This document shows, piece by piece, positions 2,234-30,797 of a stretch of 64,000 nt of DNA. This stretch comes from Candidatus Latescibacterota bacterium (lineage in GTDB: Bacteria > Latescibacterota > UBA2968 > SICM01). The notes below the pieces were generated by a model, which was not told where the DNA came from, ran no database searches, and saw only the letters and a program-made list of their open reading frames with translations. Location: positions 3,008,001 through 3,072,000 of the forward strand of contig CBDCJO010000002.1 in assembly GCA_965217865.1 (NCBI GenBank). The letters run 5' to 3'. The position numbers and the translations under genes were made by a program. Each line of letters begins with the position of its first letter. The stretch's first letter is position 1.

Positions 2234-2569
2234 ATGGAGCAACTGTCCTCAAACAGTGACCCGGTCAAGAAGCGCAGGAGCTTGTCCCCGGAACAGAAGT
2301 ATGAGATTTTCCTTGAAGCCAGCCGGGGAGATGTTCCCATTGCACAGGTGCTGCGGAAATGGGGCATTCATTCCTCGGATCTAAAGCGTATTCGTGAGTC
2401 GGTCAAGTCCGGGGCCCTCAAGGAGTTCAAGGGTCGCCGGAGCCGCAAGCCGATGGTATCGGCTGAGGAGGTGGAGCAGCTGCGCAAAGAGCGGGCACGC
2501 CTGGAGCAAACGATCATTGAGCAATCTGTGGAACTTTCCCTGCTAAAAAAAAGTGTGAATGGGATCTGA
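2234..2569 (+). CDS. Transposase OrfA (HTH + coiled coil)
   Basis: RBS AGGAGG; HTH-like region; ends ELSLLKK over an A8 run at 2545-2552 (slippery site). Confidence 0.85.
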   Translation: MEQLSSNSDPVKKRRSLSPEQKYEIFLEASRGDVPIAQVLRKWGIHSSDLKRIRESVKSGALKEFKGRRSRKPMVSAEEVEQLRKERARLEQTIIEQSVELSLLKKSVNGI

Positions 2570-2592
2570 CAGGCCCGATCAAGGGCCACCGG

Positions 2593-3624
2593 GTGCAAGC
2601 TGAGGTCAAACGCGAGATCCTCTTAATGGTCCATCGGGCCAAGGAGAAAGGGGTGAAACTCACCCGTTCTTGCGAGATCCTACAGCTTCCCCTCCAGCGG
2701 TATTGTGCCTGGAGCCGGCGAGATCGAGAAGAGAAGCTGGATGGGGTGTCGGACCCGCTTTTGGATGGGAAGCCCGGGCCCGCCCCTGATGAGGCCCCAC
2801 ACGGATTGCTGAGGGAGGAGAAAGAGCAAATCCCGGCCCTCTTAAGGGATGAGACCTATGCCGATCTGCCTCCCCATCAGCTGGCGGTGGTAGCCTCAGA
2901 GAAGGGGGTAGTGCAGGCCTCGGCCTCCAGCTTCTACCGACAGGCCAGGAAAGAACGTCTGGCACGCAGGAAACAGGTGAGGACGCCGGTCAAGCAGAGC
3001 AAGCCCCAGGTCAAACCTGAAGGTCCTAATCAGGTCTGGAGCTGGGACCTGACCTACATCCCATTTTTCGGTTTGTTCCTGTATTTTACCGCCATTCTCG
3101 ACGTGTATTCCAGGAAGATCGTAGGATGGAAGCTCTCCTTCAACGCGACCGTGGAGCAGGTCAAACAGGCCTGGGATCAAGCCCTTGCCAACGAAGGACT
3201 GCTGGACCTGGACACTGGGCCCATAAGCTTGACAGCCCTCTCAGATCACGGATCTCAGATGAAGGCCAAATCGATGGCCCAATTCTTCAAGGACCTGGGC
3301 ATCTCGCAGCTGTTTGCCCGATATCAAACACCCACGGACAACGCCTGGATCGAAGCCTTTTTCCGGACATTCAAATACGACTGGCTGCGCTTCCAGGACA
3401 TCTTCACATTCCATCAACTGGAAGGCCTGATTGATTCCTTCATTCACAGCTACAACGCCGAACGCTATCACGGGGCAATACAGTATGTCACGCCTCTTCA
3501 GAGGCATAAAGGCCAGCATCAAAAGATTCTTCACCACCGACAAGGTCGAAAGGAGGAGGCTCGGCAGCGCCGCATAGAAATCAATCGGCAAAGAACATCC
3601 CAGACCATCCACAAGGCTGCCTGA
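2593..3624 (+). CDS. Transposase OrfB (rve/DDE integrase core), probably made as an OrfAB fusion by -1 frameshift
   Basis: PNQVWSWDLTY, ILDVYSRKIVGW, SDHGSQM, PTDNAWIEAFFRTFK, YNAERYHGAI; the -1 frame is open from the A8 run. Confidence 0.93.
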   Translation: MQAEVKREILLMVHRAKEKGVKLTRSCEILQLPLQRYCAWSRRDREEKLDGVSDPLLDGKPGPAPDEAPHGLLREEKEQIPALLRDETYADLPPHQLAVVASEKGVVQASASSFYRQARKERLARRKQVRTPVKQSKPQVKPEGPNQVWSWDLTYIPFFGLFLYFTAILDVYSRKIVGWKLSFNATVEQVKQAWDQALANEGLLDLDTGPISLTALSDHGSQMKAKSMAQFFKDLGISQLFARYQTPTDNAWIEAFFRTFKYDWLRFQDIFTFHQLEGLIDSFIHSYNAERYHGAIQYVTPLQRHKGQHQKILHHRQGRKEEARQRRIEINRQRTSQTIHKAA

Positions 3625-3777
3625 ATCTTGCTTGGACCTTTATCTGCTTTTCTCTTGTTATCTCAGAATAGATACAATATGCCCAGTTTGAATGGTTAAG
3701 GTCCCCATTGTTTAAACCCAGCTCCGGAACACTTCACCCCCATCTGATCCATAACTCGCCCCCTTCGTTCCGAATAC

Positions 3778-4713
3778 TTATCGACAGATCTTTAATTTGT
3801 ATATCCCATATCCTAAGATACAGAGCGCAACAAACCCGTATCCTATTGGCGGCATCAACGGAATCGTTCGAGGGATGGTAGGTGGTGGTGTTGATGCTGG
3901 TGATGCTGGTGGTGGAGGCAATGGCTGGTCGGTACTGCGTAGAATGGTTCCACTGTTTCCTACCACAAGGGCTACAGTGACGCTGAAGTCGATACCATTG
4001 AGATCTTGCCCCGTCCCGCTGACCTGGGGGCTCCACGTCACCCCATCGTCGTCGCTGCGGATAAGGGTTCCACTGTTTCCCGCCACAAGGGCTGTCAGGG
4101 AAGCAAGGAATGAGATCCCCCTTAAATGGTTTCCCGTTCCGCTGGGTACGGGTCCCCAGTTGGCCCCACTGTCCGTGCTGCGTAGAATGGTTCCACTGTC
4201 TCCCCCCACAAGGGCTGTGCTGCCACTGAACGCAACCGCGGCCAGAAGGTTTCCCGTTCCGCTGGGTACGGTTCCCCAGTTGGCCCCACTGTCCGTGCTG
4301 CGGGTAATGGTTCCACTGTTCCCTACGGCAAGGGCAATGCCCCCGCTAAAGGCGACCCCATTCAAAAGGTTGCCCGTTCCGCTGGGTACGCACCCCCATG
4401 TGGCCCCGCTGTCGGTGCTGCGGATAATTTCTCCATTGTCTCCCACGGCTAAGGCTGTCGTGCCGCTGAAGGCGACCCCAAACAGAGGCAACCCGGTTCC
4501 GCTGGGTACGGTTCCCCAGTTGGCCCCGCTGTCGGTACTTCGGGTAATTTCCCCATTGGCTCCCACGGCTAAGGCTGTCGTTCCGCTGATGGAGACCCCC
4601 CTCAGAGCCTGCCCGGTCCCGCTGGGTATGATGGACCATGTCTGGGCAAAGCTCTCTTCAGTGCCCAGGAACGCCACTGCAAGGGACAAAGCTATGCGTA
4701 TAAGCGGTTTCAT
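3778..4713 (-). CDS. Secreted BNR/Asp-box repeat (YCF48-like beta-propeller) protein with C-terminal membrane anchor/sorting signal
   Basis: Signal peptide (…SFA|QT); six ~40-aa repeats with RSTDSGANW Asp-box; Pro-rich linker; hydrophobic helix plus basic tail. Confidence 0.85.
   Translation of the reverse strand: MKPLIRIALSLAVAFLGTEESFAQTWSIIPSGTGQALRGVSISGTTALAVGANGEITRSTDSGANWGTVPSGTGLPLFGVAFSGTTALAVGDNGEIIRSTDSGATWGCVPSGTGNLLNGVAFSGGIALAVGNSGTITRSTDSGANWGTVPSGTGNLLAAVAFSGSTALVGGDSGTILRSTDSGANWGPVPSGTGNHLRGISFLASLTALVAGNSGTLIRSDDDGVTWSPQVSGTGQDLNGIDFSVTVALVVGNSGTILRSTDQPLPPPPASPASTPPPTIPRTIPLMPPIGYGFVALCILGYGIYKLKICR
3930..4640. repeat. ~120-bp coding tandem repeats inside the Asp-box gene
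   Basis: GCTGGGTA recurs at 4141, 4261, 4381, 4501 and 4621 (120-bp period). Confidence 0.92.
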
Positions 4714-7080: not shown

Positions 7081-8601
7081 TTAAGACCCCGTCCTGCTGA
7101 ACGTGACGGTCCAGATGGGTCCGCAGTCAATGAAGGTGTATTTGAGGTTCAGCTGACCCGCGATCGATCGGATCTGTCTCCTGGTGTAGAAATAGACCGG
7201 GCAATTTTGACGCTTTAGCCAGAGATAGCGGATCCAGGTCTGCAAGAAGGTATACTTCTTCGGGAATGTGGCCACGATCTTATCTCCGGCGAGATGGACG
7301 GCCTTTTCCAAATAGGCGGGCACTTCCGTGTGTTTCACATAGTCGAACACGCCGATCATTAGCAGATAATCGAATGTACCGTTTGTCCTGTATTTCAGGA
7401 AGTCCTCGTTCAGCCACCTGATTTTTCCGTTGGGGTCGCGGGCGTTTTTTTGTGACATGGAAATCATGCGGACCGAGAAGTCCATCCCGGTTACATTGGC
7501 TCCCTTATCGGCGAAAAAAATGGAATAGATCCCCGACCCGCATCCCACGTCCAGGATGGTCTTTCCCCTGACGTCACCGAGAATATCCGCGGCGGCACTA
7601 AAACGACGAACCAACCCGGGTTTTCTGAACAGGATGTGTCCGAGGTTCTGGAAAAAGTTTCTTTCCCCTTTTCCATAAAAGCCATCGAAACGGTGAGCGC
7701 ACGCATCAAAGTAGGTCCTTACCCGATCCTCCTGAACGCCAAGTCGCCCTCTTCCCACCTTCCATCGATTTATCACGTCGATCATCGGCTCGAATTCAAA
7801 TTCCCGTAAGAGCCCTTCGATTTTCTGGAGGGCTTTCAAGATGCCGGAGTAGGTGATCAGGTAATTTTTCAGCCCGATCGCGGTTATCCTGGGGGTCTTC
7901 GCGTGAATCTCCCACGGATGGAAGTAGATCACGAAGGGCCTTTTCCGATTGACCTTCCTGAGGAGATATTTCAACAAACCAAAGGGGAGGATCCGGAGGT
8001 AGAACCCGCCGCTGATCGGGATTCTGACGCGACCCCAATTGAAAACCGTGAGGGGAAATTCCAGGATCTCAGATGCCCCCTCCTCCCTGGTCAAGTCATC
8101 GAGGTTCGGGGGGTAGATGGAACATGGGGCGCGGGGCAGTCCATAAAGAAAATTTTTGGCGGGAAAAATACTCGAGTCGTAGAGATAGCCGTTGTCGACC
8201 AGACGCCCCATCGCGTATCGGGTCCGGTTATCCATCGAAAAAGTCGGGGCCCTGAATCCCTTTATATTCACGCGGGGCCCCAGAATTTCATCGATTAATC
8301 GCTCGAAGGTCTTCAGTTCGAGGTCGAAATCGGGATCCCCCAATTCCCAGAGGGGCTTATGGGTCATCCCGTGCGAGGCGATTTCGTGGCCTCCCACGTG
8401 GATCGATTTGATTAAATCCGGGTGTTTTCGGGCGATGTCTCCCAGGACGAAGAACGTGGCCTTGACCCGATATTTCTCCAGGAGATCGAGTATGGTCCGC
8501 GTCGAATCTTCGATCTGTGACTCGGGATTTTCGGGCAGGTGTCTTCTGACGAGTTCGGGATGGTACCAGTCTTCCAGATCGATGGTCAATGCGTTCTTCA
8601 T
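7081..8601 (-). CDS. Polysaccharide deacetylase (DUF3473/PEP-CTERM-locus type) fused to a class I SAM methyltransferase
   Basis: ALTIDLEDWYH, HEIASHG, GFRAPTFS, YFHPWE in the N-half; ILDVGCGSG in the C-half. Confidence 0.88.
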   Translation of the reverse strand: MKNALTIDLEDWYHPELVRRHLPENPESQIEDSTRTILDLLEKYRVKATFFVLGDIARKHPDLIKSIHVGGHEIASHGMTHKPLWELGDPDFDLELKTFERLIDEILGPRVNIKGFRAPTFSMDNRTRYAMGRLVDNGYLYDSSIFPAKNFLYGLPRAPCSIYPPNLDDLTREEGASEILEFPLTVFNWGRVRIPISGGFYLRILPFGLLKYLLRKVNRKRPFVIYFHPWEIHAKTPRITAIGLKNYLITYSGILKALQKIEGLLREFEFEPMIDVINRWKVGRGRLGVQEDRVRTYFDACAHRFDGFYGKGERNFFQNLGHILFRKPGLVRRFSAAADILGDVRGKTILDVGCGSGIYSIFFADKGANVTGMDFSVRMISMSQKNARDPNGKIRWLNEDFLKYRTNGTFDYLLMIGVFDYVKHTEVPAYLEKAVHLAGDKIVATFPKKYTFLQTWIRYLWLKRQNCPVYFYTRRQIRSIAGQLNLKYTFIDCGPIWTVTFSRTGS

Positions 8602-16008: not shown

Positions 16009-16888
16009 TTGTGTATTAGGCTAAACCGAAGAAGGCTGATGAGAGCCCGAACTAGCAGAAAGAAGGCAAACCTCCCAATTTCGGTACCCCTTATTTCCAA
16101 AGCCTTCCTTTTTACGACCTGGGGTATGGATCGGCTCCCCGGTATTCTTGGAAGGAAGCTTTCCTCCATCTTTGGAACGCTTGTGCTCATTATGTCCACA
16201 CCAAGAGAGATGGAGGAAATGGTGAAGGGATATTACGCACGACCCCGTTCTATCGAAAGGTGGGGAGATAGATTGGTTGGAACAGGGGGGAAACTATATC
16301 GGGAAGAGTCCGCCTTTGTTGCCAAATATCTAAAAGGGAAAAAGACTTGCCTTGTGTTGCAATCCGGTGGAGGACGTGAGTCGCTTGCCCTGGCGCGGCT
16401 GGGATTCGAGGTTACAGGTATCGATTGCTGCGAAGCCCTCGTCGAAAGAGCGAAGGATCACGCAAAAGCCCTATCTCTATCCTGCCGATTCGAGATCGGA
16501 GAAATGTCCGAGGGGACTCCCGCGAAGAGAAAATTCGACGCACTCTTCCTCACCCAGTACATGTATAGTGCCATTCCGACCAGGGAAAGACGTATCACTT
16601 TTTTGGAAAAGGCAAGGACCTTCCTTGCAGAGGATGGATTTTTCTACCTTGAGTTTTATTCAGATGAGGTTTTGGAGGGAAATGATTGGCGGTTCCGAAT
16701 CAAGCGGGTCCTTGCCAGGTTGTGGGGGAGAAATCAGGAATTGGAGACCGGAGATTCATATGAAGTTGATCATTTCTGGCATGATTTCAATTGTGAATCG
16801 GAGATTTTGCCAGAATTTGAGGAGGCCGAATTTGGCCGTTGTGGATTTAAATTTAGACCTTGAATTCGCCGTTCTTACCCTTCGGTAA
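16009..16888 (+). CDS. Class I SAM-dependent methyltransferase with a probable 1-nt frameshift near its 3' end (start uncertain)
   Basis: LVLQSGGGRESLALARLGFEVTGID; removing one G at ~16834 gives …EFAVVDLNLDLEFAVLTLR*, matching the paralog's …GFAVAEIEFAKGYAVLSL. Confidence 0.78.
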
Positions 16889-17327: not shown

Positions 17328-18134
17328 TCAGTAAATCGGGGTGTCAGCCGTCCCTTGGACCGGCACATACTCCGGGAAGACGATCGGGAAGGTCATCCCC
17401 GAAGAAATATTCCGCGTAGCCGCATCGATATAGCAGACGCTGAAAGCACGACGAGGACGGTTCGTGGTATTGACTTCGGAACGATGCAGGGTCAGGTTGT
17501 CCAGGAGCACGACCTCCCCGCTTTCCAGCTCCAGGTAGAGCCGCTTCTCATCCGGGGCGTGAAGAGGGATCTCCTCGGGCGATAAATGGTCCCCATGTTC
17601 CGGGATGATGCTTTTGTGCGAGCGGGGGATGATCTGCAGGCACCCGTTTGCGACGCACGTCGGATCCAGCGCGGTCCAGACCGTGACCTTCGGCCGGATG
17701 TCCAAACCCCAACCGCTCGCGCCATCCTGGTGCCAGTTTATGGTGACGCCCTGTTCCGCGGGTTTGTTGAAGAACATCGACCGAAAGACGGAGACCCGGT
17801 CGTGGATAAGCTTCCGGGTGATATCCCGGAAAAGGGGATGCTGCATGTAGTCCCGAAAAAGGGGGTCCTGGTCAAGATCCTGGATCTTCCGGTACTTCAA
17901 CGAGGACCCCTTGAACGAACGGGTCTTTTGGGAGAGCTCCGGGTGTCCGGCCGAAGGGCAGAGCTGCATCAGCATGTGGTCGTAGCGGATGTTCCCGAGC
18001 ATGATATCATCGATGCGTTGACAGAGGGAACGGATCCGGTCATCGGGAACGACGCGCCCGAGCCGGAGATAACCCTTTTCGCGAAAGGTATCCAGCTCCC
18101 CGTCGGTCAGGAATGGGGGATGGAGATCAGGCAT
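17328..18134 (-). CDS. Phytanoyl-CoA dioxygenase (PhyH) family Fe(II)/2OG oxygenase
   Basis: FREKGYL, WHQD, VWTALD, NGCLQIIP.SH, LHRS..N…RRA. Confidence 0.93.
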   Translation of the reverse strand: MPDLHPPFLTDGELDTFREKGYLRLGRVVPDDRIRSLCQRIDDIMLGNIRYDHMLMQLCPSAGHPELSQKTRSFKGSSLKYRKIQDLDQDPLFRDYMQHPLFRDITRKLIHDRVSVFRSMFFNKPAEQGVTINWHQDGASGWGLDIRPKVTVWTALDPTCVANGCLQIIPRSHKSIIPEHGDHLSPEEIPLHAPDEKRLYLELESGEVVLLDNLTLHRSEVNTTNRPRRAFSVCYIDAATRNISSGMTFPIVFPEYVPVQGTADTPIY

Positions 18135-18280: not shown

Positions 18281-18285
18281 AAAAG

Positions 18286-18600
18286 CGGGCCAACGGCCCG
18301 TGATTCCTTGGCCCAGTCCAACGGGCTGGGTTTTGAATGTGGCCGAATCGAGCGGGCTAACGGTCCGCGATCCGGATCAATCCCACACATACCGTCCATC
18401 GAAGGACATGGATTGGTGCATTGCGATGTGAAATTATCGCGGCCCTTCAGGCCGCACGACGCTATTGCTTCTCATGACCCAGGGCAGCTCGCCTGGGTTG
18501 AGGGACAACGCGCCGTTGGCGCTGAAAGAAAGCCATGACTTTAGGCTCGGTTTCTCGATTAGCTCAAAGGCTCGGGTGTCAATCGCGAAGAGTCCGCCAC
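18286..18600. mobile_element. Non-autonomous IS200/IS605 (RAYT-like) relic with REP palindromes; second copy at ~42650-43020
   Basis: Palindromes GGGCCAACGGCCC, CCCAGTCCAACGGGCTGGG; minus strand 18377-18409 reads MSFDGRYVWD*, resembling the C-terminus of Y1 TnpA proteins. Confidence 0.65.
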
Positions 18601-18756: not shown

Positions 18757-20358
18757 TTAATTCCCGAACGTGTGTTTAAGAATTTGAAAAATCCTCTTGA
18801 TGAACCATCTCCGGGGGTGTTCCTGTGTGTGGTGTGCGACCACGGCATTGGATGGGAAAACGGTCTTGAAGATGAAACGGGCTTTGTCCATAGGCCCGTG
18901 TCTCAAGGCGAGGTGGACGAAATAGCTCAACCCGGAGCGGGTGCGGCCTTTCGCCAGGCGGCGCAGGAAGAGGCGCTCGCCGGATGTCAGATGCGCAGGT
19001 TTGAGGGCGGCGAGGGTTTCATCGGGAACAGGGGCGCCCATCTGATCTCGAACGACCCGTAGGGGGAGATAGGCCATCCGGTCCAGGCGGAATCTCCGCG
19101 CCGTCTCCAGGACCCGCTCCCAGTCTTCGGCTCCCATGCCGTCCCCGATCGCCCAGGCCAGGTCTACGACCTGGAGGGGCTTCCACATCGAGTGGGCTGG
19201 CCTCATGGCGTGTTCGCACAGATAGACGATGAGGTGATGTGGGGCGACGCGCAGGGTTTCCGTCCCGTCTACAGACAAGGGAAGCGCTTCTTCCCAGATT
19301 TCGTCCATACCCACAAAATCTCGATATGCATCGGTCGGGACGGAGGTGTTCACCAAATGCCAGTGGAGGTGTATGGACGGTGAAAGGAGATCCGCCTTCC
19401 GATAATCCAGGGTGGAGAGGGATGTGGATTGATGGGGGTCGATCCCTCCGATTGGTCCGTCAATCGGGAGATAGCCCAGATCGTTCAGGACACGGTCCGC
19501 GGCACGGAGATGCCCAGGACTGACGAGGAGGTCCACGTCGTTCATCGGGCGGGTCGCGGGGCTCGGGTAGACGGTCTCGGCCAAGGCGACACCTTTCAGG
19601 ACCATCGTGGAGATCCCTGCGTCGGTGATGGTTTTCAGGACCTCTCCGAAGGCGTTGATCATGACGACATACCGCGCGGCGGAACCATAGTAGGCGCGTG
19701 AAAGGGCCCGGGACACTTCGAGCGGAAGTTCCGTCCCGGAACGCTGGAATTGAAAATAGAGGAGCGGGGCCAGGTCCCGGGTTACGGCGACGGAGACCAG
19801 GTCTTCCCATTCGGGTTCGGATTCGGGGAGAAGCCCGTCCACACGGACGGACGGTCCGCAGAGTGAAACGACCCGCAGGAGGTCCCCCCCGTCCCGGTCG
19901 AGCCGCTCGCGGATCGCAGTGCCCCATCCGCCCAGGGTCCTGGAGATTCGCCTGCCGATCGGGATACGCGCTCCCGGCCAGCGCATGGCACGCTGTGCTC
20001 CGCGGTCGAGGCGGACCCGCCTGCCGCGTCGTTCCAGGATGTCGATCCGGCCGAGCAGGTCGGACTCGGGGACCTCCTCCTCCTCCAGGCACTCGGGCGA
20101 ATCCCCCTGGATTTTATAGGCCCCACGTCTCCTCCCCTTCACCCGATGGACGCACGGCCCCCCGGGCGAACAATAGAGGACCACGTCGCCGGGTCCGGGT
20201 TTCTCGGCACTCAGGGGATCGACGATCAGGATGTCTCCGGACCGGATGAAGGGCTCCATGCTGGTCCCGGTCGCCCGGAATCGGAAGGGCTGGCGTCGAT
20301 GATTGAGTGTGGTCTGAGCCAGGTCGAGGAATTCGGTTGAAGAAGGAATTATGAGCAT
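18757..20358 (-). CDS. S26/S24-type peptidase fused to an uncharacterised nucleotidyltransferase (NTP_transf_5-like)
   Basis: GTSMEPFIRSGD…GDVVLY…VHRV…QGDS in the N-terminus; VLKGVALAETVYP….RPMNDVDLLV and IHLHW in the C-terminus; ATG at 20358 preferred because upstream codons are low-complexity repeat. Confidence 0.9.
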   Translation of the reverse strand: MLIIPSSTEFLDLAQTTLNHRRQPFRFRATGTSMEPFIRSGDILIVDPLSAEKPGPGDVVLYCSPGGPCVHRVKGRRRGAYKIQGDSPECLEEEEVPESDLLGRIDILERRGRRVRLDRGAQRAMRWPGARIPIGRRISRTLGGWGTAIRERLDRDGGDLLRVVSLCGPSVRVDGLLPESEPEWEDLVSVAVTRDLAPLLYFQFQRSGTELPLEVSRALSRAYYGSAARYVVMINAFGEVLKTITDAGISTMVLKGVALAETVYPSPATRPMNDVDLLVSPGHLRAADRVLNDLGYLPIDGPIGGIDPHQSTSLSTLDYRKADLLSPSIHLHWHLVNTSVPTDAYRDFVGMDEIWEEALPLSVDGTETLRVAPHHLIVYLCEHAMRPAHSMWKPLQVVDLAWAIGDGMGAEDWERVLETARRFRLDRMAYLPLRVVRDQMGAPVPDETLAALKPAHLTSGERLFLRRLAKGRTRSGLSYFVHLALRHGPMDKARFIFKTVFPSNAVVAHHTQEHPRRWFIKRIFQILKHTFGN

Positions 20359-20359
20359 A

Positions 20360-20870
20360 GAGAAGGGAAATGGAAAATAGAAAGTGTAAAATGGAAAAGT
20401 GTAAGACCCTTCCACCCATCCCCACCGGAATACAGAATACAGAAGTCAGAAGAAGACCGGGAATCAACTTAGTCGTCAGACATGAATCGTGAGACGGCAA
20501 AAGGCAGTAGCAGTGGCAGGAAAAGCAAAGGCAGCCCGAGCGTCAGGGGTCAGAGGAAATTGAATATTGACGATTGAAAGACCGTGAAACGTGAGACAAA
20601 AAGCAGTAGCAGTGGCAGGAAAAAGCACAGGCACCCCCAGTTTCAGGTGTCGGAGATCAGGGGCCAGAGAAATTGAAGATTGACGATTGAAAATTGAAAG
20701 ATTGAAGATCAAAGAGTCCATAAGCACATAAGAAAATTCTGCGTTTTTCAAATATTCAATTCTCCGATATTCAATATTGATGGGGGTCAGAGAAATTGAA
20801 GATTGAGATCGAAGCGAGATCCATATGGACTTTAGAAAGTCCTGGGTTGTTCCAATATTCAATGAGGTTG
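20360..20870. repeat. Cluster of nested short-period repeats / MITE-like units between pqqD and the peptidase-NTase gene
   Basis: GCAGTAGCAGTGGCAGGAAAA twice; GGGG(T/C)CAGAG…AAATTGAA three times (~20545, ~20659, ~20782); ATTGAA/TTCAAT inverted heptamers. Confidence 0.85.
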
Positions 20871-20874
20871 TGGG

Positions 20875-21165
20875 TCAGGGGTCGTTGACGGGCAAAACGG
20901 CGCGGACGGTCTCCAGGCGGGTGATGAAATCCCGGACGTCGGTCTCGGCCTGTTCGGGTCCGACTTCGAATCGCTCGACGATCCCGTCCATGATATCCCG
21001 GACGGTTTTCTCTCCGTCCAGCAGGTTCCAGATGGCGGCTCCGACTTCGTTCAGGGTGAAGACGCTCCCCTTCGGTCCGTCGATGGCGCGAACCGGGACC
21101 AAAATCATCTCGCCCGCGATCTCCCGGAAGATGAAGTCGGGATTTCGGGCATAGCGTGCAATCAC
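20875..21165 (-). CDS. PqqD family protein / RiPP recognition element (RRE)
   Basis: FREIAGEMILVP…FTLNEVGAAIWNLLDG…FEV….AETDVRDFI..L; GTG start overlaps the precursor stop (GTGA). Confidence 0.95.
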   Translation of the reverse strand: MIARYARNPDFIFREIAGEMILVPVRAIDGPKGSVFTLNEVGAAIWNLLDGEKTVRDIMDGIVERFEVGPEQAETDVRDFITRLETVRAVLPVNDP

Positions 21166-21353
21166 GAAGTTGCCGCCGAGTTGGTACCCTTTGATTTAGT
21201 GACCTGTTTGCACTTCTTTTTGCAAAAGCCGGTTTCTTGGTTTCCATCCTTTGCGCTGGTGGCGTTACTCTTGCAAGGGTGCAGGACGGCCTGGCTGGTC
21301 TCAAGGAGGACTTCGTGGATCTCGGGCCGACTGTAATGCATACGCTCAGCCAT
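21162..21353 (-). CDS. Putative RiPP precursor peptide (63 aa)
   Basis: AAGGAG RBS; MAERMHYSRPEIHEVLLETSQAVLHPCKSNATSAKDGNQETGFCKKKCKQVTKSKGTNSAATS; YxxPxI RRE-binding-type leader; overlaps both neighbouring genes. Confidence 0.85.
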   Translation of the reverse strand: MAERMHYSRPEIHEVLLETSQAVLHPCKSNATSAKDGNQETGFCKKKCKQVTKSKGTNSAATS

Positions 21354-22256
21354 GTTCGATCTCCTTTGCGATGTGGTCGGTAATTTCCGGCGAGTTGACA
21401 AAACCGAGCTTTTCAGTCCAGTCCTGCGCGAGGTCGCCGATCCTGAAGAGTGCCGCACAGCGGGCGTCGTCGTTCCACACGGGGAGGAAGGTCTGGGACA
21501 GGAGCCCTGCGAAGTTTAAAGAGGCGGGTTGTTGACAGGTCCTGTTTCGCCTGTCGTGATGAATGATGTAGATCCGGCTCAGCGGGACGCCCCCCGGGGC
21601 GACCGCGAAAGCGGAACCGGGCCAGGGGGTGCCGTAGACCGTCCACGCCCCGTCCCGCTTTCGAAGGATGGTGTGTTCGTCCCCGATGACAATCGCGTCC
21701 GGGCGATTCGTTGCGAAGAGGCGGGAGAGTGTGCTCTTGCCCGTCCCCGAGGCGCCCGCAAAGACGATGCCGCGGCCCCCCAGGTCAAAGGCAGCGGCAT
21801 GAAAAGCATCAGGCCGTCCTCTGTCCCCAGCCTGTCGGCCAGGAGGATGCGGAGGAGGGGCTCCAGGATCGTTGCCAGGTTCCGACGCCGGGGACGCTTG
21901 CTTTGTGGGCGACCGAACAGATCTCGCTGTCCCTCGGTTCCGAGCCTGATCACCCCTTCCTTCAAACCCGCGTCCATCTCGGCCACGCGGTTGGGACGGG
22001 CGGTGAGCGGGTCGCAGATCTCAAATAACCGCTGACCGTTCTCGCTGTGAAGACGCCAGTGGCCGGGCATCTCGAAGATGGGTTTCTCAGGCCGGGGGGA
22101 AATCTCTCCGGTCTCGACGACCCGAAGGCGGATATCTTCCGAAGGGAAGCCGCCAATGAATCGTCCGTAGAGACCAGGGTTCCGTTCGAGGCGGACGCCT
22201 TCGAGGTGGAGCTTCACGCCGATGTCCGCGACCCGCAAGTCCAGTGTGTTTTTCAA
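21346..22256 (-). pseudogene. HPr-kinase-related P-loop protein, frameshifted at the T4 run (plus-strand A 21802-21805)
   Basis: After the shift the frame reads HAAAFDLGGRGIVFAGASGTGKSTLSRLF…IGDEH…VYGTPWPG…LGFVNSPEITDHIAKEIEHG*; this half is absent from the ORF track; TTG start at 22256 inferred. Confidence 0.85.
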
Positions 22257-22291: not shown

Positions 22292-23424
22292 TTAATTCGG
22301 GAGGCCGATCTGAAGCAGGCCGCCCGTCATTGCCGGCGCCCCGAAGGCCTCCGCCCTGAGATGGGTGATTTGACAGAGATAATCGACCGGCTCCTCCTGG
22401 TCGCCGTGCTCCAGGAGGGAGGTGCCGGGGCAGGTGCTGCAGGCGGAGATCAACTCGCAGGAGCGGCAGCGGGTCGGCCGTTCGCGCTTCGTTTCGCGAA
22501 GCCTGGGAAAATATTCGTAGAATCCCTCCTTGAAGCTTTTTTCCCTGAGGTTGTGTCCGTTGTGCCGAGAGATGAGACACATCTCCAGGTCCCCGTAGGG
22601 GTCGACCACGAAGTTGGTTGTCCCGGCCCCGCAGAGATAGAGGTTGTCCGTGTCCGCAATGCCCAAGTTTTCGGGCAGGAACTCTTCGCGCCAGGCCTCG
22701 GCCTTCTCCGGATCGGCCATCTCTAACGCCACCACATCCTCCGGGGACATCCGTGTCCCGCAGGGCTTGTGGGAACAGTCGATGCGGGGGTGGATCTCCG
22801 GGTCGTACTTGAAATCCACTTCGAGCTCGCGCGCCATTTGTTCCATCTCCGGGACCTCGTGCTGATTGAGGCCGAGCCCCACGGTCTTCAGGCTCATCTG
22901 AATATTCCGTTCCCGCAGGAGCCGGATTCCCCGGAGGCATTTTTTGTAAGCACCGGGTACCCCGGTAACCTTTTCATAGGTCTCCTCAGAGGCCCCGTAA
23001 AGGGTGATCTCGATCTTGAAGGGGGGGTCTCGGCCAGGAAATCCACGGTGTCGGGCGTGAGCATGCAGCCGTTGGTGAACAGGGTGATCAGGAGTCCGCT
23101 CCGCTTGGCGTAGAGGTAGATGTCCCGAAAATCTCGGCGCAGGAGAGGCTCCCCCCCGGTGATGAGAAGAAAGAGGCATCCCTCCACCACCATAGCGTCG
23201 ATGACACGGCAGCACTCCTCGTAGGTCAGCTCCCGGTTACGGGCGTCAGGATCGTTGGCCGGGAGGTTGACATAGCAGTGGACGCACGCCAGGTTGCACC
23301 GGTGCGTCAGTTCCAGGGTCCCGTCGAGCGGGAACCGTTCCTCATCCGCTTTTCCGTGGACGGCCGCGCTGAAGTCGAGGTAGCGACGATGGGGAATCGT
23401 CACCTCTTCCTGTTCTGACGTCAT
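22292..23424 (-). pseudogene. Radical SAM/SPASM peptide maturase, frameshifted at a C7 run (plus-strand G 23021-23027)
   Basis: ELTHRCNLACVHCY, ITGGEPLLR, FTNG in one frame; EITLYG, CGAG…VDPYG…C, CRSCELISACSTCPG…YLC in the other; one extra C joins them (ETPPFKIEI); GAGGAGG RBS. Confidence 0.92.
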
Positions 23425-23498: not shown

Positions 23499-24764
23499 TC
23501 ATTTCTTATCCGGGAGATCGTCTTCGGAGATCACGTCGGTGATGTGCAGGATCCGGGTTTCTCGCAGATTGATGGTCTGGATGTTGCGGACTTTCTTTTC
23601 CTGAGAATCGTAGAGGATCTCGACGGAGGGCCTGAGGGGATGGGATTCGTAGGTCTCGACGACCCTCCCTACGGCGCCTGAGTTGAGCTTGACGTAGCTT
23701 TTCAGCGGGAAGGCGGACAGCTTCTGCAGGAGGACCTTGAGGACCTGCTGGCTGAACGTGCCCCGCTGATTCTGAAGCATAAACCTGACCGCGTCGAAAG
23801 GCAGCATCCCCCGGCGGTCGGGCCTGGACCGGGTAAGCCCTGCGAAGCAGTCGGCCACGGCGATGATCCGAGCGTATTCTTCGATCTGGTCCCCCTTCAG
23901 ACCCCGGGGGTAGCCGCTGCCGTCTTCCCGTTCCTGCTCCTGGTAGGCGACATCCGCGAGCCACTGGTAGTCCTTACCGAGCTTGGACAGGATCTCGTAG
24001 CCGTATTGGGGATGCCGCTGCATCTCCGCCTTCTCCTCGTTGGTCCATTTTCCCTTCGTCAGGATCGACTCGGGGAGTCGGGTCATTCCGATGTCGTGCA
24101 GGAGGGCGGCCAGACCGAGGTCCACCAGGCGATGATCCTCGAAGTTCATTCCCTCACCGATCCGGAGGGCATAGACGCCCACATTGACGGAGTGGGTGAC
24201 CAGGGCCGCGCTAAACCCGGCGTCCTGTTTGGCCTCCTGGGCATAGATCGCCTGCTTGTAAAGCAGGTCTGTCGCCCCCTTCATGCCGATGATTCGGGTC
24301 AGGATGGCCAGGGCAACGTCCACGGAGAGAGTCGTCCCCTGTTTGGCGGAGTTGATAACCCCCCCCACGAAGGAGTAGGCCCGCTGGTAGAGGGCATTCA
24401 CCGCCTCCTCATCCACCTCCGGAGGCTTTTCCGGCTCCGGGGGAGGGGGGGCAGTCTCCGGGGCCTGCGGGGCAGGTGCCCCGGCCGGCTCAGGCGCTGC
24501 GGGGGCCCCACGGGCCCCAATGGGACGGGGTAAGGCGTCTGCGACCTCTGCCCCGCTCGTGTCCAGACGTTCATTGATTCGGCGGACTTGGTCGGCAAGG
24601 GAGACGACCGCTCCCAGCTCATCGTAAATCTGCCGAAGCACGGGAAGATCCCGCATCTGGGGGGAGTCATCCCCGGCTTTGAAGGGCTGAGGGGGCTCCG
24701 GTCGAAGGGGGGCATTGCTGATGGCCGTTTCCCCTTTCCGGACCATGTCTGAAAGGCGTGGCAT
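23499..24764 (-). CDS. HD-GYP domain protein
   Basis: HSVNV, ALLHDIG, HPQYG, EREDGSGYPRGLKG, IIAVAD; the HHE motif reads EQE. Confidence 0.9.
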   Translation of the reverse strand: MPRLSDMVRKGETAISNAPLRPEPPQPFKAGDDSPQMRDLPVLRQIYDELGAVVSLADQVRRINERLDTSGAEVADALPRPIGARGAPAAPEPAGAPAPQAPETAPPPPEPEKPPEVDEEAVNALYQRAYSFVGGVINSAKQGTTLSVDVALAILTRIIGMKGATDLLYKQAIYAQEAKQDAGFSAALVTHSVNVGVYALRIGEGMNFEDHRLVDLGLAALLHDIGMTRLPESILTKGKWTNEEKAEMQRHPQYGYEILSKLGKDYQWLADVAYQEQEREDGSGYPRGLKGDQIEEYARIIAVADCFAGLTRSRPDRRGMLPFDAVRFMLQNQRGTFSQQVLKVLLQKLSAFPLKSYVKLNSGAVGRVVETYESHPLRPSVEILYDSQEKKVRNIQTINLRETRILHITDVISEDDLPDKK

Positions 24765-24771
24765 TCTTGGT

Positions 24772-25575
24772 TTATGATCTCATGACCGCAGCGACGGCCT
24801 TCTGTGCGATCCCTTCATCGATTTCGGTCGCTCCGGAGCTGAAACCGAGCAGGAGGCTCATGTCGCAAACGTTGTTCACGTCCCTGGGAATCCCGTGAGT
24901 GGCACTACAGATTATGGGGAAGGTTTCCGGACTGATGATCTCCTTCTGAAGCCCGGCCTTTTTGAGGCGATAGTGGATATATTTACCGGTTTCCTCCGTA
25001 GAAAGTGGCCCGAGGTGATATTTTATCGCGATGCGCTGTTCGAGTTGGCGGATTTGCCCCACCTTCTCCCGTAGTTCAGGCTGGCCTATCAGGATGAGGG
25101 TCAGGAGGAAACGATCGTTCAGCTGGAAGTTGAGGAGGAGGCGCAATTCTTCGAATGTGTCCTGGTTTTCGATCGCCTGGGCCTCGTCGATCATGATGAC
25201 CGTGTCCTTACCCGCGTTCAAATTCTTGACGACAACGTCATTCAGGGCGTGAAGGAGGTCGAGTTTCGAGGTGGCGTCTGTCTGCTCGCCGAGTTGATAG
25301 AGGATCTCCCGCAAAAAGTCGATGGGAGGAAGGCCTGGATTGGCGACCAATCCGACCTCGAATCGATCTCCGGACAGGTCCTGGACCAGGGTACGGCTCA
25401 GGATCGTCTTGCCACAACCCACCTCTCCTGTGAGCATGGCCGAACCCTTACGGTTGTTCACGGCATAGAACAATCGGATCAGGGCTTCCTGATGCTCCGG
25501 GGAAGGATAGAAGAATCTGGGATCGGGGACGTTCTCAAAGGGGAGTTCCTTCAGGCCCCAGTGCTCTTGATACAC
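24772..25575 (-). CDS. ExeA/GspA-like AAA ATPase
   Basis: MYQEHWGLKELPF, LTGEVGCGKT, IDEAQ, LIGQPEL, GIPRDVNNVCD. Confidence 0.92.
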   Translation of the reverse strand: MYQEHWGLKELPFENVPDPRFFYPSPEHQEALIRLFYAVNNRKGSAMLTGEVGCGKTILSRTLVQDLSGDRFEVGLVANPGLPPIDFLREILYQLGEQTDATSKLDLLHALNDVVVKNLNAGKDTVIMIDEAQAIENQDTFEELRLLLNFQLNDRFLLTLILIGQPELREKVGQIRQLEQRIAIKYHLGPLSTEETGKYIHYRLKKAGLQKEIISPETFPIICSATHGIPRDVNNVCDMSLLLGFSSGATEIDEGIAQKAVAAVMRS

Positions 25576-25875
25576 GCCCGCTCTCCTTTATTGTTTTTAA
25601 AAAAGATCCGTGAATCCTGTTATAATACTTTTTCGACCAGGAATTGTCAAGGCCGGACGACGGCATCGGGTGATGGGTCCTCCTCAAGCCCATAACTGGT
25701 CTTTCAGTCTCGATACATCAGTCAAACTTGCCCAAATATAGACACGAATGAACATTCAGTCAAGAAAAATAAACAATAATAAACTTTTTACTTGATTTTT
25801 GGTCTCATTGTGTTTAAATTAACATACACATCAAAGTATTTAATGCTATTTCATCCACAAAAAATGATCGGCGGG

Positions 25876-26654: not shown

Positions 26655-28667
26655 ATGCTTGTCGATGACCTGAGACGGACCAAACGCATCCGTATCCATA
26701 ACGATTCCCCGACCGACGGGGCGCATCATTTCGGTTTCTCGGTCTACGCGGAGACCCTCGCAAAGATCATCGCCGATCGGGCGAACCGGACGCCGTTGAC
26801 CTTGGCGATCAACGGGGCCTGGGGGAGCGGCAAGACAACATTGATGCGGACGATCCGCGAGAAACTGAATCAGATATCGGCCGAGGTGGAGGGGAACGGG
26901 GGAGACGGCATCTTTCGATCCAGTCGATCCGTCTGGTTTAATGCCTGGAAGTACTCTGACCGGGATGCCATCCTGGTCGTGTTAATCGAAGAGATCGTGT
27001 CCCAGATCGCATCCGGCGGCATGCCGGAACAGCGGCTGCAGGGCATGCGTCGGAGCGAGGGTGGAATGGACTGGGCTGGAATCTCCCGGGCCATGGACGA
27101 CCTTGTGGGGAAGACCGGAGTACCTGAGCTCAAACGCTTTCTGGAGAACGATACTGCGATCGTCAAAAATATCCCGCTGCTGCGGGAGTTTGAACACTTT
27201 CTGGATCGGTTGATCAACTGGTGCATCGTTCGGAATCGTGGAAACGGCCCGGAGGAATTCCCGGATGCGACGGGCGTCCTGACCATATTCATCGACGACC
27301 TCGACCGATGCCAGCCGGACCGGGTTTCCCGGGTTCTGGAGACCATCAAACTCTTCCTGGATCGACCCGGCTGCGTATTCGTGATCGGCATGGACAGCGA
27401 GATCGTGGAGAAAGCGGTCAAGGCTCAATATGTGGAGATCGAGGGCTTCGATGAACACGCTTACATGGACAAGATCATCCAGGTGCAGTTCAACCTCCCG
27501 CCCATCCGGGCTGAACACATCCAGTCGTTTATACAGGAGGATCTCATCGGGACGCAGGCAAAAGACAATCCCCTGTCCAGATATCTCGATGTGGTTTCCG
27601 AGGCCGTTCGCCGGAACCCCAGGACGGTCAAGCGGTTTTTGAACACCTTTTCTATCCAGCGAAGCCTGGCCGAGTCTCAGGGATTGCTCAAAAACGGAGG
27701 GATGGACGAAGACCTTCTCGCCAAGTGGATCATTCTCTCTTTCGCTTTCGAGTCGTTCATGCAGCGCGTCCTTCAGAGGCCGCTTCTGTTGCCGGAGATG
27801 CAGGATGCCCTCTCAAGCAGGGATGGAAGCGGGGATCTTTTGATGACCCCCCCGCCCCACCTGCGGGAATTCCTCGAAGACCAGGCCCTCGTCGATATCA
27901 TCCAGCAAGGAAAACCGTTCCCTACGGATGAGGAGGAGCTCGCGATATACATCCACCTGAGCGAGTCGACCCGGCGCAGCAGCCTCTTGGGGAAGGACGG
28001 GGAGGAGGGGGGCGGAGTCTATCGCGCGGAGGAGGGGGCCGCCATGGTTCAGGTGGAGGCCGGACGGTTCCTCATGGGCGAAGCCAAGAAACCCGTTTCG
28101 CTCGAAAGCTTCGAAATCGACGTTACGCCGGTTACACATCGACAGTTCCAGCGGTTCATCGACGACATCGACTATACCCACCTTCCGGACAGCTGGCCGG
28201 AAGGTACCTATCCCCCGGAGAAGGCCGATCACCCGGTGGTCGGCATCTCGCTTCACGACGCGAAGACATATGCCAAATGGGCGGGAAAGCGTCTTCCCAC
28301 CGAAACCGAGTGGGAGAAGGCCGCCCGTGGCCCCAACGGAAGGTTGTTTCCCTGGGGCAACACCTTCAACCGCTATAACTGCAACAACAAAGAGCTCGGC
28401 CTCCACACCACGACCGAGGTTGGCCACTTCCCCAACGGGGCCAGCCTGTACGGATGCTACGACCTGGTCGGCAACGTTTGGGAATGGACGGACACAGACG
28501 TATTTCCGGATAATAACGAAGTCAAAGTGATCCGGGGGGGCTCCTGGTCAAGTCCACGTGAGGGTGTCGTTGCAACCACACGAGCTTACTCCCGTGCGGG
28601 CGAACGTCGGCAAGACCTGGGCTTCCGCTGTTGTCGCAGTTCGAATGAGGATGATTTTGTCGTGTGA
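26655..28667 (+). CDS. KAP-family P-loop NTPase fused to an FGE-sulfatase (SUMF1/C-lectin fold) domain
   Basis: AINGAWGSGKTT, FNAWKY, IFIDDLDRC, YMDKIIQ, NPRTVKRFLN; then HPVVGIS, RLPTETEWEKAARG, GNVWEW, RGGSW, GFRC. Confidence 0.93.
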   Translation: MLVDDLRRTKRIRIHNDSPTDGAHHFGFSVYAETLAKIIADRANRTPLTLAINGAWGSGKTTLMRTIREKLNQISAEVEGNGGDGIFRSSRSVWFNAWKYSDRDAILVVLIEEIVSQIASGGMPEQRLQGMRRSEGGMDWAGISRAMDDLVGKTGVPELKRFLENDTAIVKNIPLLREFEHFLDRLINWCIVRNRGNGPEEFPDATGVLTIFIDDLDRCQPDRVSRVLETIKLFLDRPGCVFVIGMDSEIVEKAVKAQYVEIEGFDEHAYMDKIIQVQFNLPPIRAEHIQSFIQEDLIGTQAKDNPLSRYLDVVSEAVRRNPRTVKRFLNTFSIQRSLAESQGLLKNGGMDEDLLAKWIILSFAFESFMQRVLQRPLLLPEMQDALSSRDGSGDLLMTPPPHLREFLEDQALVDIIQQGKPFPTDEEELAIYIHLSESTRRSSLLGKDGEEGGGVYRAEEGAAMVQVEAGRFLMGEAKKPVSLESFEIDVTPVTHRQFQRFIDDIDYTHLPDSWPEGTYPPEKADHPVVGISLHDAKTYAKWAGKRLPTETEWEKAARGPNGRLFPWGNTFNRYNCNNKELGLHTTTEVGHFPNGASLYGCYDLVGNVWEWTDTDVFPDNNEVKVIRGGSWSSPREGVVATTRAYSRAGERRQDLGFRCCRSSNEDDFVV

Positions 28668-29469: not shown

Positions 29470-30797
29470 GGATCTTCACGCAGAAGTATGGATAGATAGA
29501 AAAGCTCCACGAATTTTCAGGGCAAAGTAGTCGAAGTCTCTGAAGCCGAAGGCGATGCGCTTGATGACTTTGATCTTGTTGTTTATGCCCTCAACGATGC
29601 TTGTGTGGATGGGGTAGTCGCAGTGTGCCAGGATGCTTTCCTTGTGATATAGCAGCTTCCTGGTGAAGCGTATCAACGGCTTGATCCCGGAGTCAAGGGC
29701 TCTTTGACACCAGGCGTCGAGCCATCTGGCTGCCCAGGCTTTGCGTTTGTAGATCCAGACTCGTTTCAGGTCCTCTTTGAGGATGTAGACGGTGTTCAAA
29801 CGTTGATTGATGGCCAGGAGATCGCGGAGTCGGGCTGGCTCATCGCGGTCGGTTAGCAAGTTCTTTCTGTTTTTGAGAAGTAGGTATTTGGTTCCTCGGA
29901 TGATAGCCTTGTTGTCCTTGGAGGCTTTTCGACATTCATCGATCCGAACCCGATCGATTACTTTCTGGGCATAGATCTGGAGCAGGTGGAAGGGATCATA
30001 GACCGTGGCAGCGTCAGGACAATGCTTGCGCTTCGCCTTGGCATAGCCGCGCCAAGCGTCCATCGCGATGGCCTGGATCCGGCTGCACTTTCCAGGGCCC
30101 AGCGCCTCGAAGAATGGATCCAGTGCTTCGGCGTTGCGGCCTTTGCCAACATATAGGACTTGTCCTGTTCCTGCATCAGCTACTGTAGTACCATAATCCT
30201 GGCCGCGTTTGACGGCGAACTCGTCAATGGCCAGCAGCGAGGCCTCAGTATCGCCTACGGCAGGCAAGTCGTCCTGTAAGGCCTTCTTGTCGATCTGTTT
30301 AACCACACTCCAGTGCAACCTGAACTGCTGGGCAATCGCTTTGATCGACCGGATTTCTCTGCAGGCCAAAGCTACAGCTCCAGCCAAGCGTTTGGTGTAA
30401 CCAACACGAGGTTCCACCCAATCCAGATACTCAGTCCGAACGCCGCATGTCGCACAGCGTATCCGGCACTGGGAGAACTCGATCCAGACACGACCGAAGG
30501 GTCCGAAACTCAGATCCTTGACCGAACGTAGGCGGGAATCATAGCAAGATCGATACGTCCGACCACAGGTGCAGCGGTACTCCTTTTCCCGTCGCGAGAC
30601 CTCTATCCAAAGTGTCGAGAGATCCTCGCGGAACCTCAGCTTGATCACATAAAATCCTTGCAGACCAACCAGCCTGTCGATATAATCCTGTATAGCCATC
30701 GGGATTCTCCTTTCGTCAGGTTAGGTGCGTTACCCAACTGTAGGAGAAAACCGGTGGCTTTTCTACATTATTGATCCACTCTTAAGCGTGAAGAACC
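29470..30797 (-). mobile_element. ISL3 family insertion sequence with 8-bp target duplication
   Basis: Inverted repeats GGATCTTCACGC / GGTTCTTCACGC; direct repeat AAAATTGA at 29462-29469 and 30798-30805. Confidence 0.95.
29476..30699 (-). CDS. ISL3 family transposase
   Basis: Zn-finger Cys pairs, LAIDEF, AMDAW, YDPFH, VEGINNKIKVIKRIAFGFR. Confidence 0.96.
   Translation of the reverse strand: MAIQDYIDRLVGLQGFYVIKLRFREDLSTLWIEVSRREKEYRCTCGRTYRSCYDSRLRSVKDLSFGPFGRVWIEFSQCRIRCATCGVRTEYLDWVEPRVGYTKRLAGAVALACREIRSIKAIAQQFRLHWSVVKQIDKKALQDDLPAVGDTEASLLAIDEFAVKRGQDYGTTVADAGTGQVLYVGKGRNAEALDPFFEALGPGKCSRIQAIAMDAWRGYAKAKRKHCPDAATVYDPFHLLQIYAQKVIDRVRIDECRKASKDNKAIIRGTKYLLLKNRKNLLTDRDEPARLRDLLAINQRLNTVYILKEDLKRVWIYKRKAWAARWLDAWCQRALDSGIKPLIRFTRKLLYHKESILAHCDYPIHTSIVEGINNKIKVIKRIAFGFRDFDYFALKIRGAFLSIHTSA

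Follow-up and report, generated by a model that had tools for sequence, protein, structure and literature searches.

A gene for a predicted three-cysteine peptide with radical-SAM, RRE, kinase and S26-peptidase partners in a Latescibacterota genome

A 64-kb stretch of DNA from a Candidatus Latescibacterota bacterium (64,000 nucleotides, here called the window) carries a small gene that we interpret as the precursor of a radical-SAM/RRE/kinase/S26-peptidase cassette. We put it at somewhat better than even that, in strains in which the cassette is intact, the peptide receives sactionine thioethers at its three cysteines and a phosphate at its terminal serine, and is cut near the AVL motif. Judging from the gene content, the pathway would work like a sactipeptide route fitted with a leader, RRE and kinase of the lasso type. 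The genes lie closely packed in a minus-strand run that reads ExeA-like ATPase, HD-GYP, radical SAM/SPASM, HPr-kinase-like, precursor and PqqD-type RRE; the S24/S26 peptidase-NTP_transf_5 gene stands downstream of the RRE, beyond a repeat-filled spacer. The precursor gene and its partners are as follows.

21162..21353, minus strand: precursor peptide gene, 63 aa (from translation, homologue alignment, family profile and codon comparison)
21361..21366, minus strand: AAGGAG ribosome-binding site, with the ATG 7 nt downstream, within the 3' end of the kinase gene
21318..21335, minus strand: leader motif YxxPxI (Y7-I12), at which the RRE is predicted to bind, with weak support from modelling
21273..21293, minus strand: QAVLHPC leader-core junction, predicted cleavage zone; the family form is V-L-[GAS]-x-C
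21165..21278, minus strand: predicted core, with Cys27, Cys44, Cys48, Ser29 and the terminal Ser63
20875..21165, minus strand: stand-alone PqqD-type RRE (PF05402, 67.6 bits), whose start overlaps the precursor stop
21346..22256, minus strand: peptide kinase with an HPr-kinase/PEPCK fold; in the window's strain a frameshift lies near 21802
22292..23424, minus strand: radical SAM/SPASM enzyme; in the window's strain a frameshift lies near 23027
18757..20358, minus strand: S24/S26 peptidase (Ser33, His71, Asp86) fused to an NTP_transf_5 nucleotidyltransferase

Translation of the minus strand from 21353 to 21162 gives 63 residues and a stop codon, with Y7-x-x-P10-x-I12 in the leader, the junction QAVLHPCK, Cys27, Cys44 and Cys48 (spacing 16 and 3) and a final Ser63. 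An earlier note on this DNA had described a YxxPxI leader, an AVLxxCK-type junction, three cysteines and a terminal serine behind an AAGGAG ribosome-binding site; all of these were found, the last at 21366-21361, 7 nt ahead of the ATG. The precursor ORF overlaps both the stop codon of the kinase gene upstream and the start codon of the RRE gene downstream. A genome-wide scan for ATG ORFs of 35-90 aa with a ribosome-binding site, an early YxxPx[ILVM] and at least two cysteines returned two ORFs in 6.4 Mb, one of them the precursor itself, and a family profile matched this ORF alone in the genome (E 3.6e-12; next 0.65); neither the motif scan nor the profile search found a second precursor gene in the source genome. 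The ORF together with its motif set exceeds chance expectation.

One close homologue, with 56% identity, was found in G001, a genome from the same family of organisms, in which the gene order is the same and the radical-SAM and kinase frames are open. The two precursors differ at 16/20/34 sites by codon position, and this single pair, with dS near saturation, gives a dN/dS of 0.21 for the whole ORF (leader 0.11, core 0.31), compared with 0.14-0.29 for the neighbouring genes. Because this ratio is similar to that of its neighbours, the sequence comparison indicates that the precursor is a translated gene under purifying selection. A 98-aa GTG ORF that shares the precursor stop was rejected as the gene, because it extends through coding sequence of the kinase and because the alignment to the G001 homologue starts at the ATG.

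As a query, the single precursor peptide matched itself alone, and the family surfaced through neighbouring genes and profiles. A word-seeded search gave 81 matches among 153 candidates, while a full profile search against clusters at 50% identity matched 1,702 representatives with E<=0.001, of which 169 reach 1e-10. Within the window's phylum the precursor profile matched 2 of the 168 genomes searched; named records with family loci include Thermoanaerobaculia, Chloroflexia, Gemmatimonadaceae and Desulfobacteraceae. Neither Pfam nor NCBIfam models matched the members scanned (11 and 6, respectively), and a search of the ESM Atlas returned three unnamed clusters at 0.85, which are leads only.

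We compiled a set of 146 unique precursors, which thinning to 70% identity reduces to 71; YxxP was required for entry, so that its frequency in this set is by construction. The earlier note had made conservation of the leader, the cysteines and the terminal serine among homologues the test of its proposal, and these are conserved: three core cysteines occur in 146/146, a tyrosine stands 20 residues ahead of the first cysteine in 127/146, and the last residue is serine in 139/146 and threonine in 4/146. Among the 72 unique precursors from loci selected by their radical-SAM gene, three cysteines occur in all 72, with a terminal serine in 65 and threonine in 4; among 149 library matches (the best 150 less one 938-residue protein) the corresponding counts are 143, 135 and 6. 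The profiles behind all of these counts were seeded on the same motifs and the sequences are related, so the numbers overstate their independence.

The modal core of the family is C-x12-C-x5-C-x3-G-S with a charge of about +1, the last cysteine lying 5 residues from the C-terminus in 119/146, and the first spacing varies between 11 and 17, the second between 1 and 14. By these measures the window's precursor is an outlier (spacing 16 and 3, charge +6, 15-residue tail); among the 146 precursors it shares its tail with G001 only. The C-x16-C-x3-C spacing that had been put forward therefore does not describe the family, whose modal spacing is 12 and 5. The Lys-rich, cationic core that had been suggested to suit membrane binding fares no better: a core charge of at least +5 is seen in merely 4/146 precursors, and G001 has CNNTCK, without the lysine run, where the window's copy has CKKKCK. 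Since the cationic core is peculiar to the window's copy, the charge-based argument has no comparative support, and we rejected cationic membrane binding as a family trait. Two loci have tandem precursor genes (L109:1311-1757 and L117:2034-2396), and the cores of the L109 pair are rich in Trp and Tyr and end in Gly-Thr.

To describe the cassette across genomes, we used the G001 radical-SAM protein as a query, which gave 11 genome loci including G001 itself; an alignment of these 11 was then used to take the best 80 of 511 metagenome matches, for 91 loci in all. The precursor profile found a member in 75/91. Of the 16 loci without one, 13 end within ~500 nt of the radical-SAM match and three (L078, L088 and L089) have room for a precursor; L078 and L088 hold a radical-SAM homologue and an S24 peptidase, with no precursor, RRE or kinase match in the locus. 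Where at least 3 kb is available on either side of the radical-SAM gene (n=34), a precursor is present in 32 loci, the kinase in 32, the RRE in 31, the S24 peptidase in 28 and a nucleotidyltransferase in 8. Most loci contain a single radical-SAM gene rather than a pair. L046 has, upstream of its main cassette, another small YxxPxL-type peptide with two cysteines, accompanied by a kinase-like gene of its own and by an additional RRE (2287-3573 and about 3554-4656). In roughly half of the class-level relatives (G001-G060) there is a distant second PqqD-like match, found in G000 at C1:227,548-227,709, which apparently has no relation to the cassette. Around the cassette in the window lie the following additional features.

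16009..16863, plus strand: SAM-dependent methyltransferase, likely accessory, homologues of which flank the cassette in 7/91 loci
17328..18134, minus strand: PhyH-type 2OG/Fe(II) dioxygenase, found in 0/91 loci, of uncertain membership in the cassette
23499..25575, minus strand: genes for an ExeA-like ATPase and an HD-GYP protein, with which the likely operon begins; synteny holds in G001, and L110 too has both
25622..25650, minus strand: sigma-70-like promoter match (11/12) upstream of the ATPase gene, a consensus match only

The PhyH gene follows the S24-nucleotidyltransferase gene in G001 too. Between these two genes in the window (about 18284-18592) is an element of ~300 nt that recurs on contig C2 in dozens of copies at 80-90% identity, possibly a non-autonomous mobile repeat. 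Elsewhere in the window, a gene that joins a KAP-family P-loop NTPase to an FGE-sulfatase domain (26655-28667) is syntenic in G001, and a 407-aa ORF (29476-30699) resembles an ISL3-type transposase.

The peptide may be a tag, cofactor or signal in the handling of large surface proteins, rather than a free natural product such as an antibiotic; this would be compatible with sactionine chemistry, and we regard it as fairly unlikely. In its favour, the S24 domain is extended by over 1,000 additional residues in 13/50 S24-bearing loci, with DUF11 repeats in 4/4 of the fusions scanned (L105, L108, L145 and L147); in these four and others the ORFs are longer by this amount from about 8,100-8,500. 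Cassette neighbours elsewhere include C25 peptidase, TIG, SdrD-B and invasin-domain proteins, a transporter does not recur as a core gene (an ABC family is present in 5 loci), and the window's operon opens with genes for an ExeA-like ATPase and an HD-GYP protein. Against this, no large surface-protein gene adjoins the cassette in the 64-kb window, the neighbours vary by lineage, and many of the fusions belong to related Acidobacteria-like loci.

The radical-SAM gene stands beside that of a Cys-containing core, an arrangement by which sactipeptides are recognised and for which the enzyme frame is open in G001. The SPASM motif C-x2-C-x5-C-x2-C-x18-C is present in 80/82 radical-SAM proteins, and the best PDB sequence match is the sactisynthase SkfB (E 7e-24). 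Six catalytic-site positions have been defined, and given for CteB and StsB, in PMC10288494; we located them from motif landmarks in the sequence and not from structure. They read Y-T-F-T-L-I in the G001 enzyme and Y-T-F-T-V-[LI] in the family (82 of 89 loci parsed, 7 missed), with Y at position 1 in 79 of the 82 loci, T at position 2 in 74, F at position 3 in 78, T or S at position 4 in all 82 and L, I or M at position 6 in 76. By the same landmarks SkfB reads Y-T-F-S-Q-L, so that 5/6 positions are identical or conservative, in a comparison that is landmark-read and partly common to the decarboxylase BlsE (7vob), whose T-I-S at positions 2-4 means that the profile is not specific. The published positions are Y-T-I-S-K-L for the sactisynthase StsB and F-F-T-S-H-Q for the ranthisynthase CteB (PMC10288494). 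PqqE (S-S-I-S-H-A) and anSME (F-Q-Q-S-D-F) are unlike the family at most positions. The family differs from both SkfB and StsB at position 5, and the StsB variant I174F, which places Phe at position 3, is reported to be inactive (PMC10288494).

The cores are poor in the acceptors that other known chemistries would use: Asp or Glu stands at Cys+4 in 2/207 positions, any Asp or Glu occurs in 24/71 cores and Trp or Tyr in 12/71, and the core alignment has no invariant acceptor column. Taken together, the site profile and the scarcity of acidic acceptors and of Trp/Tyr favour sulfur-to-alpha-carbon cross-links; the active site would be closest to those of SkfB and StsB, and thioethers from cysteine to an alpha-carbon are the likeliest product. 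The SPASM enzyme would, on its active-site residues, abstract a hydrogen and link the cysteine sulfur to the backbone carbon of the acceptors, and the suggestion that the cysteines are thioether donors gains from their being a family constant beside a sactisynthase-like enzyme. Several named classes were set aside. A hairpin-type sactipeptide does not fit, as the cysteines reach to 5 residues from the C-terminus and the nested hairpin of known group-1 sactipeptides is impossible for all three; a CX3D ranthipeptide of the PapB/QhpD/CteB type is opposed by the 2/207 acidic Cys+4 positions and a site profile unlike that of CteB; and a cyclophane is opposed by the few cores with Trp or Tyr. Mycofactocin was rejected as well, the termini being mostly Gly-Ser without a C-terminal Val-Tyr and the MftC model (TIGR03962) scoring 112.6 bits against a cut-off of 265.

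One may nevertheless postulate that the radical-SAM enzyme forms no thioether at all, and instead carries out MftC-like work at the C-terminus, oxidizes Ser or Cys or couples carbon to carbon, with the cysteines left to form disulfides or bind metal. The best NCBIfam match is in fact mycofactocin MftC, below its cut-off, with heme-synthesis enzymes also among the top matches; the terminal G-S is conserved above any internal acceptor, the cysteine spacing is variable, and BlsE has part of the site profile. MftC, however, requires the C-terminal Val-Tyr that is missing here (PMC10288494), the odd number of cysteines is almost constant, the agreement with SkfB extends to 5/6 positions when conservative changes are counted, and the rarity of Trp and Tyr runs contrary to cyclophane chemistry. 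We think this alternative rather unlikely.

The phosphate that we predict alongside the thioethers is suggested by the adjoining kinase. Residues H154, G169, G174, K175 and D194 are invariant in a 19-row alignment, and the family kinases fit the lasso-kinase motif H-x14-G-x2-G-x-G-K-[ST]...D-[DE], the window's lineage having D-E for D-D; the motif is given as H-G-G-G-K-S-D-D for BsfK (PMC10368454). A structural model of the G001 kinase (mean pLDDT 77.7) matches PEPCK and HPr kinase folds, with modest TM-scores. Lasso kinases phosphorylate the terminal serine of the linear precursor, and in pseudomycoidin PsmN attaches a hexose to this phosphate (both PMC8498205). The HPr-like kinase would accordingly phosphorylate the terminal serine of the precursor in the manner of PadeK-type lasso kinases, and the nucleotidyltransferase, an accessory where present, may decorate the terminal phosphate by analogy with pseudomycoidin. 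The proposal that Ser63 is the kinase acceptor sits well with the conservation of the terminal serine in both precursor sets (139/146 and 135/149) next to a kinase with this motif.

An internal acceptor, namely the Ser/Thr at two residues after the first cysteine (Ser29 in the window's copy), is improbable in our view, whether the terminal serine is then kept for another reason or both are used. BsfK sets a precedent in phosphorylating core Ser3 (PMC10368454), and the internal residue is Ser/Thr in 111/146 precursors, including all three that lack a terminal hydroxyl; none of the 146 lacks both. Asn or Gln is the last residue of three Chloroflexia precursors, and the kinases that adjoin them have intact motifs. 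Conversely, the 35/146 precursors without Ser/Thr at the internal position retain a terminal Ser/Thr, and the terminal position is the better conserved of the two (143/146).

As to the leader, its conserved YxxP and the adjoining PqqD-type RRE agree with the proposal that it is an RRE-type leader, and the stand-alone RRE would bind the YxxPxI motif. Modelling of the RRE with the precursor lends weak support, with a score of 0.46 against 0.01 for the best control, at least 93% contact agreement between runs and a partner pLDDT of at least 48, using custom alignments. The mark applied is reached by 116/157 solved complexes and 2/215 mismatches, but only 18 of the 157 solved complexes, and both mismatches, do so at 0.60 or under; resemblance to RRE-leader complexes of solved structure may account for the pass.

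Removal of the leader we assign to the peptidase, whose Ser, His and Asp positions each show conservation of 90% or more in an alignment from which one row (L152:958-1281, a wrong gene end) was disregarded. Signal peptidases follow a -3/-1 rule, with small residues and no proline around the cut. In the family, Val stands at Cys1-4 in 140/149 and Gly, Ala or Ser at Cys1-2 in 142/149, which fits this rule and so points to a cut after V-L-G; the predicted family site is thus of the signal-peptidase type, after V-L-[GAS], and the Ser-His-Asp peptidase would remove the leader there. Cleavage near QAVL, as proposed from the window alone, is consistent with such a site. The junction of the window's copy, V-L-H-P, breaks the rule on both counts; its His-Pro makes the cut site uncertain, and it may differ from that of the family.

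Two other matches to the peptidase-nucleotidyltransferase gene lie elsewhere. One is a truncated copy, 98% identical, at C2:1,028,158-1,028,715 (L151:12162-12797; G000 C2 about 1,028,160-1,028,800), next to a transposase fragment that is presumably IS3-like; we rejected it as a second cluster, since it is merely an internally deleted fragment. The other NTP_transf_5 match (C2:88,242-92,918) is the start of a 1,547-aa protein that by eye looks like an NTPase with WD40 repeats. Genes for an ABC transporter and an HlyD-like protein come next, in a stretch that by eye is richer in AT (L153:8279-17357; G000 C2 88,278-97,356), and no RRE or precursor match lies nearby.

The cassette of the window's strain is broken by one frameshift each in the radical-SAM gene, near 23027, and in the kinase gene, near 21802. 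As both enzymes are affected, this strain is probably unable to mature the peptide, which would be left unmodified at the radical-SAM and kinase steps. Contigs X1 (study P1) and X3 (P2) match the window without gaps across both break sites, as X6 (P1) does across the kinase site; P1 or P2 is possibly the source sample of the window's genome. Contigs X7 (study P3), X9 (P4) and X15 (P6, depth about 3) carry frame-restoring indels at both sites, a one-base insertion and a two-base deletion, which leave the frames open. Both halves of the radical-SAM gene and the second half of the kinase gene still have low dN/dS against G001, which argues that the breaks are recent. The sister strains retain the precursor, with listed differences inside it that include one synonymous change and V51I. 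The simplest reading is that the cassette has been freshly inactivated in the window's strain and is intact in its sister strains. The spacer between the RRE and S24-nucleotidyltransferase genes (20400-20780) consists of short repeats with ~65-97 BLAST matches each in the genome, and it has large indels among other strains. That the frameshifts are instead assembly errors or programmed slips, and that the strain does make the modified peptide, is quite improbable: the genome is in two long contigs, the breaks fall at or beside short base runs and the precursor, RRE and peptidase are intact, yet sequencing runs of two studies give both breaks letter for letter, the radical-SAM indel seen in other strains does not consist in a longer or shorter C-run, and two separate breaks, the repeat-filled spacer and the truncated peptidase-gene copy beside a transposase suit decay.

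Among described systems, the enzyme resembles the group-1 sactisynthases (SkfB, StsB/BlaB) in being a SPASM protein, predicted to depend on an RRE, with a similar catalytic-site profile as read from landmarks, and the peptides resemble group-1 sactipeptides in having three cysteines in a Gly/Ser-rich core and a stand-alone RRE, as with StsC. Unlike those peptides, the family has its cysteines spread along the core and not clustered for a hairpin, its leader is of the lasso-type YxxP form, and to its cassette belong genes for an HPr-like kinase and an S26 peptidase, joined in some loci by a nucleotidyltransferase or methyltransferase. The phosphorylated and phosphoglycosylated lasso peptides (paeninodin, pseudomycoidin and Bsf) share the YxxPx[LIV] leader, the PqqD-type RRE, the kinase motif H-GxxGxGKS-DD/DE, the terminal serine and an optional nucleotidyltransferase; the radical-SAM enzyme, S26 peptidase and three-cysteine core set the cassette apart. 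The YxxPxL-type leader and B1 RRE by which lasso loci are recognised are thus both present, but a lasso peptide was rejected, as the transglutaminase-like B2 peptidase (PF13471) is found in 0/2 genomes (G000 and G001, 96% and 95% complete) and none of the nine G000 matches to the asparagine-synthetase-like cyclase (PF00733) lies within the window. The SynChlorMet/HprK-related systems (TIGR04248-04252, TIGR04352-04355) likewise combine a PqqD-like protein, radical SAM/SPASM and an HPr-kinase-like protein, whereas most family loci have the single radical-SAM gene noted above; they were rejected because ScmA gave no match and ScmC, ScmD, ScmE and ScmF scored far below their cut-offs, at 19.9/125, 46.2/100, 73.2/400 and 76/400 bits.

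The nearest published entries are five singletons (OLC42635.1, PLX84650.1, OGR25482.1, PJA64988.1 and RJQ44704.1) that the 2023 supplement of PMC10288494 lists as 'Other Uncharacterized' predicted sacti/ranthipeptide precursors. Compared by eye and not by profile score, they share the YxxP leader, a cysteine 20 residues after the tyrosine, an EAVL, QAVL or EAAL junction, three cysteines (four in RJQ44704.1) and a terminal serine, and one has a 15-residue tail as in the window's copy. They differ in standing there as predictions only; the entries consulted carry no family name, description of a kinase or peptidase, or experiment. Group 6 of the same source, a related 'Other Uncharacterized' set, has a WxxP leader, mostly more cysteines and often several radical-SAM genes. 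We found no published description of the cassette or the family in the literature searched.

Tentatively, and with more doubt than confidence, we would extend this interpretation to a phospho-sactipeptide class of more than 1,000 precursor clusters in Acidobacteria, Chloroflexi and many uncultured lineages, in which a non-hairpin sactisynthase works with a leader, RRE and terminal-Ser kinase of lasso style, a signal-peptidase-type S26 enzyme acts as leader protease and giant surface proteins receive the product as their tag or signal. The window's own copy would be a poor test substrate, being an outlier with broken enzyme genes, while the intact G001 cassette and the site profile make a direct and cheap test feasible. 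The intact and broken alleles among closely related strains amount to a natural loss-of-function comparison. What is at stake is a large precursor family (1,702 clusters at 50% identity) without a Pfam or NCBIfam model for the members scanned; if our interpretation is true, its S26 peptidase would be an RRE-linked leader protease, and its products would form a class of thioether-cross-linked peptides with a phosphorylated terminal serine.
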